From a virus (lineage: Duplodnaviria > Heunggongvirae > Uroviricota > Caudoviricetes), in the IMG/VR virus record IMGVR_UViG_2913177423_000003, positions 1 through 4,562 of that record: a DNA stretch of 4,562 nt; one strand, written 5' to 3'. Position numbers and translations under genes: made by a program. Of this stretch, positions 1-4,562 are shown in pieces. Position 1 is the first letter of the stretch, and each line of letters opens with the position of its first letter. Under the pieces are notes generated by a model. It did no database searches. It was not told the origin of the DNA and was given only the letters and a program-made list of their open reading frames with translations.

Positions 1-114
1 AAAGATCCCCCTGTTGAGCACAACTAACACCTGGAGCGCACGCCAGACTTTCAACGGTGGGATCACCGGGACGCTGACGGGGAACGCCGACACCGCGACG
101 AAATTAAAAACAGC
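1..114. repeat. Left inverted repeat (IR-L); coding, specifies the conserved junction peptide of the fibre
   Basis: Hand alignment with the reverse complement of 4449-4562: mismatches only at positions 22, 23, 37, 58 and 91. Identity decays after about position 114. The outer 21 bp are identical. Confidence 0.9.
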
Positions 115-2020
115 ACGGAAGATTAATAACGTGCTGTTTGACGGTTCTAAAGATATTTCGCTGACGCCTGCGAACCTTGACGTCACCAGCCTGACGTTTA
201 TGAAAAACAACGGCGAAATGCCGCTTGATGCCGACCTGAACACATTTGGTCCCGTTAAGGATTATGTGGGTGTCTGGTATAAATCCACATCCTCCAACGC
301 AACACTGGAGAAACATTTCCCGGAAGACGGTGCCGTAGGTGTTCTTGAGGTATTCAATGGCGGTAATTTTGCAGGAATGCAGCGTTACACCACCAGGACT
401 GGCAATGTTTATATGCGCAACCTTTCTGGTTCCTGGAATGGCTCTGACGGCCCGTGGAGTTACTGGCGACAGATTCAGTCAGCAACACGCTCTCTGAGTA
501 CAACCATTGACCTGAATACGCTCGGAGGCGCAGAGCATCTTGGTTTATGGCGAAACAGTAGCGGCTCTATCGCTTCATTTGACCGCAACTATCCGGAAGA
601 AGGGAGTTATGGTCAGGGACTCCTTGAAGTTCTTGAAGGTGGTGGGTACTCACGCACGCAACGCTACACGACCCGCCGAGGGAATGTATATGTTCGATGT
701 CTTTCTGCTACATGGAATGCAGAGAATCCACAGTGGGAACCGTGGTCAAGAGTGGGCCATCAGTCAGAGTGTCGTTATTACGAAGGGGATTTGAATGTTC
801 TAACCGACCCCGGCATTTACAGCGTTACAGGGAAGGCAACAAACGGTCCAATGCAGGATACCGCTGGAGCAACACTGCTTGGGATACTGGAAGTAATCAG
901 ACGTTTTGATGGTGTGTCTGTTTGGCAGCGTTACACAACCACAGGGAAAGCAGAAACCACACAGGGGCGTACTTTTGAGCGCGTCTACGCCGGGAGCAAA
1001 TGGACCGAATGGCGAGAAGTATATAACTCCTTTTCGTTGCCCCTGAATCTGGGTATTGGCGGCGCAGTGGCAAAACTCACCAGTCTGGACTGGCAGACCT
1101 ACGATTTTGTGCCGGGCAGTCTGATAACCGTTCGGCTTGATAACATGACCAACATTCCCGACGGTATGGACTGGGGCGTCATTGATGGCAACCTGATAAA
1201 CATCGCAGTTGGTCCGAGTGATGATTCCGGTACGGGGCGCTCAATGAAGGTATGGCGCAGCACTGTAAGTAAAGCGAACTACCGTTTCTTCATGGTGCGC
1301 ATCTCAGGAAATCCGGGAAGCCGAACGATCACGACAAGACGAGTGCCGATAATTGACGAAGCCCAGACATGGGCAGCGAAGCAAACCTTCAGTGCTGGCC
1401 TTTCTGGTGAGCTGTCCGGCAATGCTGCTACAGCTACAAAGCTGAAAACCGCGCGAAACATTAATGGTGTCAAATTTGATGGTTCCAGCGATATAAATAT
1501 TAATACGCTGGTATCCCGGAATCGCGTCACTGCATTAAGCGGGAATGCAAAGGGGACGCCTGGTATCCAGATGTATGAGGCATATAACAATGGCTACCCT
1601 TACGCCTATGGCAATGTGCTTCATCTTACGGGTGTGTCCGCAGTTGGAGAAGGTGAGTTACTTATCGGCTGGAGCGGCACCAGTGGGGGATACGCGCCAG
1701 CATATATCCGTTCAAGGCGAGATACAGATGATGCTCAGTGGTCTGGATGGGCGCAAATTTATACAACAGCTCATAAACCCTCGGCAGGTGATATTGGCGC
1801 TTATACCGCCGCAGAATGTAATTCGCGTTTTATTACAGGTATTCGCTTAGGTGGTTTGTCATCCCTTCCAACGTGGAATGGTACTGGCTGGCATGACAGG
1901 TCAGGGCATGTTCTTACTGGTGTTGTCAATAGTAATACTGATGAATTAATTGATATCGCGCAGGCAAGACCTGTTCAGTATTGTATTAATGGCACATGGT
2001 ATAACGCGGGAAGTATTTAA
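2..2020 (+). CDS. Tail-fibre protein, variable C-terminal portion (alternative A); 5'-partial, continues upstream of the window
   Basis: The 668-aa ORF from the track stays open in frame to position 2 (aag atc ccc ctg before the TTG at 14), with no Shine-Dalgarno sequence before that TTG. It contains the tail-fibre repeat motif [17 protein letters not shown] twice (about aa 23 and 469) and three tandem units of about 90 aa with the core LEV-(13-14 aa)-QRYTT--GN-Y-R. Stop TAA at 2018-2020. Confidence 0.85.
221..1024 (+). repeat. Three tandem, diverged units of about 90 codons inside fibre alternative A
   Basis: Protein units about aa 70-160, 161-250 and 251-337. LEV cores at aa 111, 204 and 292, each followed by QRYTT then G-Y-R and W--W. 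Confidence 0.7.
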
Positions 2021-2022
2021 TT

Positions 2023-2550
2023 ATGATGCATTTAAAAAACATTAAAGAAGGCAATCCCAAGACCATTGAACAATATGAGTTAACCAAACGATTTAATATT
2101 GTCTGGTTATGGTCAGATGATGACAAAAACTGGTATGAGGAACAGAAAAACTTTCAGGATGATACTTTAAAAATGGCCTACGACGAGAACGGTATTATTC
2201 GTTGTATTGAGAAAGATGTGTCAATGATCAATCCTGATGGCTTGAGTGTTGTTGAGTTACCGAATATAACCGCCAACCGTCGCGCGGATATTTCTGGTAA
2301 CTGGCTGTTCAAAGATGGCACTGTAATCAAACGGATTTATACCCAAGATGAACTACAACAACAGGCGGAGTTACAAAAAAACACCTTGCTTTCAGAAGCT
2401 GAATTAGTCATTCAGCCGCTGGAACGCGCTATTAAGCTAAATATGGCTACTGATGATGAACGCGCCCGGCTGGAAGCATGGGAACGCTACAGTGTTCTGG
2501 TGAGTCGAGTAGATACCGAAAACCCTGAATGGCCTGATAAACCAGAATAA
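2023..2550 (+). CDS. Tail-fibre assembly chaperone (Mu U / P2 G-like family, as recalled)
   Basis: 175 aa starting MMHLKNI, with a GGGAAG Shine-Dalgarno-like sequence 9 nt upstream. It starts 2 nt after the fibre stop. The C-terminus ...[29 protein letters not shown] is the characteristic tail of tail-fibre assembly proteins. Stop TAA at 2548-2550. Confidence 0.85.
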
Positions 2551-2557
2551 TAATTAT

Positions 2558-2573
2558 GGCCCGATGTTGGGCC
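2558..2573. terminator. Candidate stem-loop in the spacer between the convergent chaperone genes
   Basis: GGCCC-gatgtt-GGGCC (5-bp GC stem, 6-nt loop) lies 8 nt after the + strand chaperone stop. Only TT follows, so it is weak as an intrinsic terminator. Confidence 0.2.
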
Positions 2574-2669
2574 TTCGAATGGTGGTTCTGGGACCAATAT
2601 CGCTTGTGGATTAATACCTTGATGCACCGGAGGTAGCAGATATATCCAGTGCACCATATATTGAATGGT

Positions 2670-3272
2670 CTACGCCTCTGGCAGTTCAGGCCAGAGGACA
2701 TCCGGCGCGGTGCTGGTATCTGTTACCGTCACCGCGTCAATGTAATCCAACACGATGTTTAGTCGGGTGGATTCCGTTTGCGTCAGCTTCCGCCCTGCCT
2801 GTAATTTCAATTGAATTAGACTGATAGAAGCCATTGCAGCATCAATCAATGACTGGCGCTGTGCTTCTGCCGCTTCTACTGCGGCATTGTGTTGTGCCTC
2901 GGTGTCTGTCACCCATTTCTCACCATCCCATTTATCATATGGCGTTAACGGGGCGATGGTGGTTGTATTTTCAGGATAATCCCCCGGTGCTGTGATTTCT
3001 TTTGATTCTCCTGTTTCGGTGCTATAAACGATTTCACCGCGATGGTCTGGCACATACTCCCATGAATTTAAATCTGCCGAACGGCAGATAGCATAACCCG
3101 CCTTATGTGTGCTAGGAGCATCTAAACAGGAATTGGCCGGAATGCCAACACCAACAGCAAGATATTCAGTTGATGCAGATATATATTCTAATGTTTCGCT
3201 ATCATAGTTATGAACGATAATATTTCCTGCCTGTACGGCAATAAGTTCATTATTCAATATCGCGTTATCCAT
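2670..3272 (-). CDS. Tail-fibre assembly protein (lambda Tfa-like type)
   Basis: 200 aa. GIPANSCLDAPS and SWEYVPDHRGEIVYSTETG resemble lambda Tfa GLPANSTDIAPP and SWHLVEDHRGKTVYDVASG (recalled from memory). The C-terminus TDTSTAPDVLWPELPEA resembles Tfa VDTSTAPDIEWPAVP. The ATG at 3270-3272 overlaps the stop of the upstream fibre ORF (TAATG). Stop TAG at 2670-2672. Confidence 0.85.
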   Translation of the reverse strand: MDNAILNNELIAVQAGNIIVHNYDSETLEYISASTEYLAVGVGIPANSCLDAPSTHKAGYAICRSADLNSWEYVPDHRGEIVYSTETGESKEITAPGDYPENTTTIAPLTPYDKWDGEKWVTDTEAQHNAAVEAAEAQRQSLIDAAMASISLIQLKLQAGRKLTQTESTRLNIVLDYIDAVTVTDTSTAPDVLWPELPEA

Positions 3273-4561
3273 TATGCAGCTCTCACAATATAATTAAATG
3301 ATGTATTACGTGGTCGCATAGATATCCATACGCTATTAAAATTATCTTCTGCTGTTCTTTGTGTGCCTGTAACTGAGTTATCAGCCGAAGCTGGAACATA
3401 GTCACTGTTATCCCCGGCTTTAGCACCAGAAGGCATTCCGATTATTTGCGCTTTATCAGCGGAAGCAAATGCTATACCAACCTTGACAGAAGTAGCCACG
3501 TCAACCCCGTAATAATCCTGTAACGCTGTGCGAATAAGTGTTGCATCCTGATTACTGAGTAGTGATCGTCCACTGTCTACACCACGTCCATCATCCCAAC
3601 CACGGATAAACTCACCGCGTAAATCAGGTAATTTACCGGTAGTGTATACCTTGGCAAGCTGAGGGTATTTTTCCATATCAAAGGCAGCGCCATTGCATTT
3701 CAGCCAGCCTGTCGGAGGCGTGGCGGAAGGCCACGGCAAGGGGACGCCTACGGGAATGATTTCGATATTTGCGCTACCGTTAAATGATACGCCGCTGATT
3801 GCGCGAGCGGTTTGCAACTTTGTAGCCGTTGCTGCATTACCTGTCGTATTTTGATTTCCCGTAGTGTTAACGCCAGGCAAGTTAATATTTGCAGTCCCAT
3901 TGAATGACACGCCTCCTATAGTTCTTGCGGTTTGCAATTTTGTTGCAGACGCCGCATTTCCTGTAGTGTTCTGGTTTCCTGTTGTATTTACACCAGGAAT
4001 CGAATCTTTAGATGTATAAATTTGCGCCCATTCTGACCACTCGGCAGTCGTTACATCTCGTCGAGAACGGATATAACTTGGAGCATGTGCACCACTTGTG
4101 CCACTCCAGCCAATCAGGAGTTCCCCCTCTCCGACAGAGGTTGCACCTTTAAGATGAACAACGTTTCCGTATGTAGTGGGATAACCATTATTGCTAACTT
4201 CATACATCTGGATACCCGCTGATGCTCCCTGTGTGGCACCAGTTAAGGCGGTAACACGCCCGCGACCAACGAGAGTATTGATACTAATATTTTTGGTTCC
4301 ATCAAATGACACACCATTAATACTGCGCGCTGTTGCCAGTTTTGTCGCGGTTGCCGCATTACCAGTGGTGTTCTGGTTTCCTGCGGTGTTTACACCAGGG
4401 AGGTTGATGTTTGTAGAGCCATCAAATGCCACACCACCGATCGTGCGGGCTGTTTTTAATTTCGTCGCGGTATCGGCGTTCCCCGTCAGCGTCCCGGTGA
4501 TCCCGCCGTTGAAAGTCTGGCGTGCACTCCAGGTGTTAGCCGTGCTCAACAGGGGGATCTT
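3272..4561 (-). CDS. Tail-fibre protein, alternative variable C-terminal portion (alternative B); 5'-partial, continues beyond the window end
   Basis: The 425-aa ORF stays open in frame to 4561. It starts with the same junction peptide as alternative A, followed by four copies of the fibre repeat (about aa 23, 63, 198, 240). A collar-type receptor-binding motif follows: TGWLKCNGAAFDMEKYPQLAKVY...GKLPDLRGEFIRGWDDGRGVDSGR (about aa 268-345). Confidence 0.85.
   Translation of the reverse strand, partial: KIPLLSTANTWSARQTFNGGITGTLTGNADTATKLKTARTIGGVAFDGSTNINLPGVNTAGNQNTTGNAATATKLATARSINGVSFDGTKNISINTLVGRGRVTALTGATQGASAGIQMYEVSNNGYPTTYGNVVHLKGATSVGEGELLIGWSGTSGAHAPSYIRSRRDVTTAEWSEWAQIYTSKDSIPGVNTTGNQNTTGNAASATKLQTARTIGGVSFNGTANINLPGVNTTGNQNTTGNAATATKLQTARAISGVSFNGSANIEIIPVGVPLPWPSATPPTGWLKCNGAAFDMEKYPQLAKVYTTGKLPDLRGEFIRGWDDGRGVDSGRSLLSNQDATLIRTALQDYYGVDVATSVKVGIAFASADKAQIIGMPSGAKAGDNSDYVPASADNSVTGTQRTAEDNFNSVWISMRPRNTSFNYIVRAA
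3821..4402 (-). repeat. Tail-fibre repeat units with a recurring PGVNT(A/T)GNQNTTGNA linker inside fibre alternative B
   Basis: Three linker copies on the - strand at about 4343-4399, 3941-3997 and 3821-3877. Hand comparison of two copies gave about 80 percent nucleotide identity; the longest exact shared run seen was about 16 nt. Confidence 0.7.
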
Positions 4562-4562
4562 T
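4449..4562. repeat. Right inverted repeat (IR-R), partner of 1-114
   Basis: Same alignment as IR-L. Read on the - strand it encodes [39 protein letters not shown], against [39 protein letters not shown] at the left end. Confidence 0.9.

Follow-up and report, generated by a model that had tools for sequence, protein, structure and literature searches.

A probable P1-like invertible tail fibre segment that pairs two unrelated fibre tips, each with its own type of assembly chaperone

The DNA analysed here, referred to as the window, is a 4562-bp stretch of the caudoviricete record IMGVR_UViG_2913177423_000003 and constitutes the entire Escherichia sp. E14S1 contig RHJQ01000048.1 (assembly GCA_004211995.1). 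It is a tail fibre locus of four genes, all of them intact, arranged as two convergent arms with a fibre gene and a chaperone gene on each strand. Arm 1, on the + strand, consists of the variable C-terminal part of fibre 1 (2..2020; listed open reading frame (ORF) 14-2020, with the frame open back to base 2) and a tail fibre assembly protein (Tfa) of 175 amino acids (aa) of the Mu U, P1 U and P2 G type (2023..2550). Arm 2, on the - strand, consists of the variable C-terminal part of fibre 2 (3272..4561; listed ORF 3272-4549, open to the contig end) and a 200-aa tail fibre assembly protein of the lambda Tfa, HK97 Tfa and e14 TfaE type (2670..3272). Both fibre ORFs reach the contig edge at an equal frame offset, and the NCBI annotation of both chaperones is 'tail fiber assembly protein'. 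The arm 1 chaperone starts MMHLKNI and ends EWPDKPE; the arm 2 chaperone contains GIPANSCLDAP and SWEYVPDHRGEIVYS and ends DVLWPELPEA.

In each arm the chaperone gene lies directly downstream of its own fibre gene. The fibre 1 stop codon (TAA, 2018-2020) is followed by 'tt' and the chaperone ATG at 2023, leaving a gap of 2 nucleotides (nt), and on the other strand the fibre 2 stop (3274-3272) and the chaperone ATG (3272-3270) merge into TAATG with a 1-nt overlap at 3272. An earlier reading of the DNA letters, made without database searches (the sequence-only reading), had reported these ORFs, peptide strings and junctions, and we found them all as described. The geometry of the junctions suggests that translation of each chaperone is coupled to that of its fibre. 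Among 232 relatives for which the junction was examined, 81 of 81 lambda-type chaperones start within an overlapping TAATG or TGATG, and the U-type junction takes the form of a stop, 1-3 nt and ATG in most cases.

The two chaperones belong to a single protein family. The Pfam profile Caudo_TAP (PF02413) matches the arm 1 chaperone with an E value of 1.8e-35 (122.4 bits) and the arm 2 chaperone with an E value of 5.1e-31 (108 bits), both far above the curated cut-off of 22.1 bits, and PHROGs assigns the former to phrog_136 (E 1e-75) and the latter to phrog_105 (E 7e-94). These matches mark the two ORFs as genuine genes rather than chance ORFs and place both in a tail fibre assembly family, in agreement with the sequence-only reading. 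Pairwise BLASTP aligned only aa 110-175 of the arm 1 chaperone with aa 136-199 of the arm 2 chaperone, at 28% identity and an E value of 0.35. When family profiles were compared by hhalign (22 relatives of the arm 1 chaperone; 75 diverse relatives of the arm 2 chaperone), a match of 99.1% probability and E 1e-18 was obtained, confined to aa 113-175 and aa 133-199, respectively. The C-termini of both (aa 101-175 in arm 1, aa 121-199 in arm 2) also match phrog_3792, a profile of 78 positions. Upstream of the C-terminal third, neither BLASTP nor hhalign gave any alignment of the two chaperones. The sequence-only reading was therefore right that they are not paralogues throughout and resemble each other at the C-terminus only. 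It had, however, limited the resemblance to a short region around a WP motif, and the hhalign and phrog_3792 matches indicate that the shared part is more than this motif: by these comparisons it is a helical domain at the C-terminus, truly homologous between the two and some 63-80 residues long, which makes up roughly one third of each protein. In the predicted models the corresponding helices span residues 108-161 in the arm 1 chaperone and 124-182 in the arm 2 chaperone, behind unlike N domains.

Both proteins thus follow a plan in which the helical C domain is conserved and the N domain is not. In the published plan, as summarized in a passage of PMC9608196 that cites the Mu Tfa structure paper, the N domain binds the fibre tip and the C domain serves assembly. 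The two chaperones fit this modular architecture, and nothing essential sets them apart from the Caudo_TAP family. The precomputed Pfam domain Caudo_TAP_N (PF28596) is present in the arm 2 chaperone and absent from the arm 1 chaperone, and the N domains are unrelated in sequence and, judging from the searches made here, also in predicted fold. Description of the pair as chaperones of two different types accordingly holds at the level of subfamily and N domain, and does not hold at the level of the family, which is the same for both, with a homologous C domain. At least three N-domain classes occur in such segments, and the two chaperones stand for two of these.

The arm 1 chaperone is 75% identical over its full length of 175 aa to Mu U (PDB ID: 5YVQ_B, solved in complex with the fibre; E 8e-88), 75% identical to P1 U and 86% identical to the chaperone of a P2-like prophage. 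In its AlphaFold model (predicted local distance difference test score, pLDDT, of 88) the N domain is α/β and superposes on 5YVQ_B with a template modelling (TM) score of 0.96 and a root mean square deviation (rmsd) of 1.0 Å. It thereby shows the features of the Mu U, P1 U and P2 G subfamily (phrog_136), including the 5YVQ_B-like N domain, which the arm 2 chaperone lacks. The fibre 1 tip preceding it (aa 564-668, ~105 aa) matches the C-terminus of the Mu fibre S (PDB ID: 8JU3_A, E 1e-45). The view of the + strand chaperone as a distinct type with a tip of its own is borne out by this combination of a Mu-U-type chaperone behind a Mu-S-type tip. Fibre 1 is composed of a shaft similar to P2 H and P1 S that carries three QRYTT repeats, a module shared with fibre 2 (aa ~447-583) and the Mu-S-type tip (~1760-2017). 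At the DNA level, bases 177-2550 are 87.7% identical, in a single block, to the fibre and chaperone genes of a non-invertible P2-like prophage, and fibre 1 has the same reading frame as S in a P1-like plasmid locus (L010). The QRYTT repeats are three consecutive domains of ~110 aa (at ~300-1020 on the + strand), each with the signature LEV...QRYTT...W..W, and share 81-92% DNA identity with the H tail fibre genes of P2-like phages, those of Yersinia pestis among them.

The arm 2 chaperone is of a different kind. It is 86% identical to HK97 Tfa and, over its full length, 35% identical to lambda Tfa, which together with the phrog_105 assignment upholds the earlier description of it as lambda Tfa-like. 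Residues 17-123 have about 32% identity to T-even gp38-type proteins, and the protein carries the characters of the lambda/HK97/TfaE subfamily (phrog_105, PF28596), including the N domain shared with T-even gp38. The AlphaFold2 model (pLDDT 97.6) shows an all-β N domain (1-122) followed by the helical C domain; searches against the PDB gave no match by sequence or fold, 5YVQ_B included. The preceding fibre 2 tip contains a Collar domain (PF07484, aa 268-315, E 1.9e-14) and resembles T4 gp37 (PDB ID: 2XGF) and the short tail fibre 9CUY. Fibre 2 is composed of an N-terminal stretch shared with fibre 1, 40-aa repeats, the shared module and the collar-domain tip (3275-3758). Bases 2595-3758 are 83.5% identical, again in a single block, to the region for collar tip and chaperone in a P2-like prophage with an invertase and in a P1-like plasmid, and this block has its limit at the first codon of the collar domain (3758). 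The shaft (3763-4486, - strand) contains four copies of a unit of 80-115 nt, 120 nt apart and arranged in two pairs, which encode the ~40-aa repeat.

Relatives of the arm 2 chaperone show the two-domain structure in another way. Among representatives at 50% identity (for example P0250, P0254, P0278, P0245, P0260 and P0276), many match it in the C-terminal part only (~90% identical) or in the N-terminal part only (55-83%), and one representative has an N domain of this type within a protein of 470 aa. Such partial matches are evidence that the two Tfa domains are shuffled independently.

The two fibres are not wholly unrelated, judging from their alignment, though their tips differ. Their first 54 aa are common (80% identical) and lie within the terminal repeat described below, and a further internal module of ~135 aa is shared at 45% identity (fibre 1 aa 447-583, fibre 2 aa 1-180). 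This module is visible in the DNA as an internal inverted repeat (1562-1765 / 4013-4216, 71% identical) encoding the motif GYP..YGNV.HL.G ... YIRSRRD, and its homology could permit recombination independent of the invertase.

We then asked how tips and chaperones are associated in other genomes, using a sample of 160 IMG/VR loci comprising the best 80 relatives of each chaperone. Tip and chaperone class agree in 227 of 231 scorable cases, with no crossed pair; lambda-type chaperones stand behind a collar tip in 81 of 81 and U-type chaperones behind a Mu-S-like tip in 146 of 150, counts that are indicative rather than exhaustive because the sample consists of close relatives. A direct comparison is offered by a sibling contig from another assembly (L012, 4813 bp), to which the window is about 95% identical except at ~1800-2650, where identity falls to 54-76%. 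This stretch corresponds exactly to the fibre 1 tip, the arm 1 chaperone and the spacer, and the arm 2 chaperone gene is 98-100% identical. Each unit is also found with other partners: in P1-like plasmids of E. coli and E. ruysiae the + strand unit has a U' unit as its partner, and the - strand unit occurs with a short-type unit in a P2-like prophage (L007) and a P1-like plasmid (L008). The arms can therefore be regarded as independent modules. Together, these comparisons support the conclusion that tip and chaperone are inherited and exchanged as one block. The prediction that each tip would be found with its chaperone elsewhere is thus supported by the single blocks at 87.7% and 83.5%, by the difference from the sibling contig and by the lack of crossed pairs in the sample. 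Also supported is the proposal that the switch pairs two distinct receptor-binding units and not variants of one, the tips being unrelated and the chaperones alignable in the C domain only.

Convergent chaperone pairs were counted in the same loci. U-type with U-type occurs 69 times and lambda-type with a third, short type (137-146 aa) 55 times; the latter number shows that it is common for a segment to combine chaperones of two different types. The pairing of lambda-type with U-type is rare. It was counted twice, both from one contig, and is known to us from the window, the sibling contig and one IMG/VR contig with an adjoining Cin that is 97% identical to P1 Cin.

The ends of the window identify the kind of element to which the two arms belong. 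The left terminal inverted repeat arm (1..156), which encodes the first ~50 aa common to both fibre parts, pairs with the right arm (4407..4562) at 86% complementarity, and with the two convergent in-frame arms between them the window has the organization of a Cin/Gin-type segment. Bases 1-1494 are 81-95% identical to the S gene of P1-like plasmids. In one of these (L010) the match, which shares the frame of arm 1, starts around codon 415 of S. The first 157 nt recur there as an inverted copy, whose end is separated by 35 bp from a gene for a 186-aa Resolvase-family protein (serine invertase); this gene stands beside the repeat in the relatives L010, L016 and L174-176. Four P1-like plasmids carry a cix-like site, TCCAATACCTTGGTTTAAGAGAA, about 28-40 nt outside the position of window base 1, and the sibling contig begins exactly at GTTTAAGAGAA at both ends, so the window ends ~28 nt short of the site position in P1-like relatives and in the sibling contig. 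The match to the S gene, the inverted copy beside an invertase and the outer cix-type sites of the relatives lead us to the view that the window is very probably the invertible C-segment of a P1-like plasmid prophage, with ~28 nt missing at each end, carrying two unrelated tips each with its matching chaperone. Switching by inversion is suggested by the inverted repeats and by analogy with the relatives. The contig breaks symmetrically within the repeat, which is only suggestive as a sign of both orientations. A DNA search with the whole window of phage, plasmid and complete E. coli genome collections returned no record covering at least 80% of it; the exact combination is thus absent from those collections, where its separate parts are present. 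The Logan run SRR8068136 contains a piece of 1891 bp that is identical to the window.

The repeat is exact only over its first 21 nt (1-21 / 4542-4562). We considered this 21-nt perfect repeat as the crossover site and rejected it, the real site lying further out in relatives; for the same reason, the exact ends more likely represent the k-mer overlap of an assembler at a graph branch than a biological boundary.

The 119-nt spacer between the convergent chaperone genes (2551..2669) contains a GC-rich hairpin and the dead 3' end of a short-type chaperone gene. The hairpin (GGCCC-6 nt-GGGCC, 2558-2573) directly follows the arm 1 chaperone stop. A scan of the spacer for promoters and terminators found only two weak terminator-like hairpins. 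On the - strand, the spacer RNA forms a long stem just after the arm 2 chaperone stop and folds better than shuffled sequences (z -3.2), and on the + strand folding was no better than that of shuffled sequences. It is possible that these structures act as transcript ends or stabilizers for the expressed arm. Reading 2615-2695 on the + strand, which extends beyond the spacer end, gives YLDAPEVADISSAPYIEWSTPLAVQAR. This shows 70% identity to the C-terminal 27 residues of the short-type Tfa (146 aa) from the P2-like prophage L007 (E 1e-7). An in-frame stop lies just upstream, and the stretch is a dead 27-codon remnant of the C-terminus of a short-type chaperone. The remnant looks like the scar of a Mu-type arm that replaced a short-type arm. 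As a tentative extension, which we consider possible but rather doubtful, the C-domain coding regions of the facing chaperones might serve as a recombination handle for swaps of whole arms among P1-like, P2-like and Mu-like elements, with 2615-2695 marking the place where the short-type arm of a 'lambda-type plus short-type' segment gave way to a Mu-type arm.

By analogy with known systems, the locus might work as follows. The constant N-terminal part of S, a Cin-type serine invertase and the cix-type sites would all lie outside the window, and the invertase would flip the segment at these sites. The arm facing the constant S would be fused to it in frame and read from a late promoter upstream of the tail fibre operon (LPs in P1), and ribosomes reaching the fibre stop would reinitiate on the chaperone gene next to it. 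The chaperone would then dock through its N domain on its own fibre tip, and its helical C domain would drive trimerization starting at the C-terminal end, in line with the proposal made for the Mu Tfa. Binding of the chaperone to the tip and its part in trimerization are suggested by the Mu S-U complex (5YVQ) together with the strict co-occurrence of tip and chaperone. If the unrelated N domains each recognize their own tip, exchange of tip and chaperone as a block would follow. The outcome would be two types of particle, presumably with different receptor specificities.

Several observations weigh against this interpretation. Inside the window there is no cix-like site at ≤3 mismatches and no invertase gene, and the terminal repeats diverge beyond their outermost 21 nt. 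Shine-Dalgarno-like sequences ahead of both chaperone starts are weak, though this also fits with coupling to the fibre. The Caudo_TAP alignment formally covers aa 40-175 of the arm 1 chaperone and aa 78-199 of the arm 2 chaperone, and some similarity upstream of the helical domain, for example in a W-x-x-DG-x-V hairpin, may exist. The difference in fold between the N domains is based on database searches and secondary structure rather than on direct superposition, and the loci surveyed for co-occurrence are close kin and partly redundant.

The observation that both chaperones match the same Pfam family over nearly the whole profile, and that both end in a ...D(T)...WP..PE motif, could be taken to mean that they are ordinary diverged paralogues of one gene within the segment, like U and U' of Mu and P1, and that the arms are variants of one unit; Mu U and U' are indeed paralogues, at 56% identity. 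We regard this as very improbable, the least probable of the alternatives considered. No pairwise or profile alignment extends beyond the C-terminal ~65 residues, the predicted N domains are α/β (5YVQ_B-like) in one and all-β without a match in the other, and full-length relatives at 75-90% identity are found in unrelated phages (Mu, P1 and P2-like for arm 1; HK97 and P2-like for arm 2). The fibre tips are unrelated too.

A different question is whether the segment still inverts. It may instead be a frozen mosaic, with one arm a silent cassette kept as recombination material, as would fit with terminal repeats diverged to 86%, a window that holds neither invertase nor site, a dead gene fragment in the spacer, and the damaged cin genes or C-segments that are frequent in published P1-like plasmids (PMC6906374). 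We consider this unlikely given four intact genes, two arms open to the edge in the same frame and an intact 186-aa invertase beside the repeat in close relatives; moreover, the symmetric break in the repeat, and the break of the sibling contig exactly at the site, are expected if reads support both orientations. Less likely still is that the window is part of a multi-arm, shufflon-like system exchanging more than two tips, such as the Min system of p15B. Invertases like that of p15B have been reported from P1-like plasmids (PMC6906374), and the P1-like plasmid locus L010 has extra cassettes, with two further ORFs (417 and 92 aa) located between S' and cin. However, the window has two arms and only one pair of terminal repeats, lacks an internal cix-like site at ≤3 mismatches, and its internal inverted repeat is the 71% identical coding module and not a site. 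An invertible two-armed C-segment thus remains our preferred reading. The two extra ORFs of L010 (12015-13546 of GCA_026233565.1, between the S' cassette and the invertase) suggest a third exchangeable cassette in some P1-like plasmids.

If this reading is correct, one host-range switch can alternate two unrelated receptor-binding modules, and not just two versions of one, with the tip and the chaperone N domain behaving as a single heritable block. This may be of use in annotating P1-like plasmid prophages and in choosing the pieces to be moved together when P1-, P2- or Mu-based particles are re-targeted. No new mechanism is involved: modular chaperones, the swapping of fibres and chaperones and invertible fibre segments have all been described before, and the arrangement is a mosaic of known modules within the P1/Mu-type invertible tail fibre segments.

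Among the closest known systems is the C-segment of P1 (Sv-U / Sv'-U', Cin, cixL/cixR). It occupies the corresponding place within S and has two convergent arms each ending in a chaperone gene, over 4256 bp in P1 and ~4620 bp here; a site like that of P1 would lie just outside the window. The arm 1 chaperone is 75% identical to P1 U. However, P1 has U (175 aa) and its paralogue U' (177 aa), whereas in the present segment a collar tip and a 200-aa lambda/HK97-type chaperone take the place of the U' arm. The G-segment of Mu (S-U / S'-U', Gin; PDB ID: 5YVQ and 8JU3) contains a G(+) unit of the type seen in arm 1, in which the fibre and chaperone genes are likewise 2 nt apart. The Mu chaperones U and U' have 56% identity over their entire length and fall into one PHROG, phrog_136, while the arm 2 chaperone shares only the C-terminal domain with them. 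The shaft here is P1-like rather than Mu-like, and so, judging from the relatives, would be the recombination sites. The spacer is 28 nt in Mu and P1, as opposed to 119 nt with a gene relic here. Given that Mu and P1 both pair paralogous U and U', the present combination of a U-type with a lambda-type chaperone is a mosaic variant. The segments of P2-like prophages and e14 (stfE/tfaE, pin-type invertase) supply the counterpart of arm 2, with a collar tip, a 200-aa Tfa and overlapping stop and start codons at 83.5% DNA identity, and they likewise pair two chaperones with different N domains. There, however, the 200-aa Tfa faces a short Tfa (137-146 aa), and the 3' ends of the two overlap by ~28 nt. 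In the window this short partner is reduced to the dead 27-codon remnant, and a Mu-U-type unit stands in its place. With respect to the Tfa family as a whole (PF02413), both chaperones pass the cut-off by a wide margin and share the two-domain plan outlined in the relevant passage of PMC9608196.

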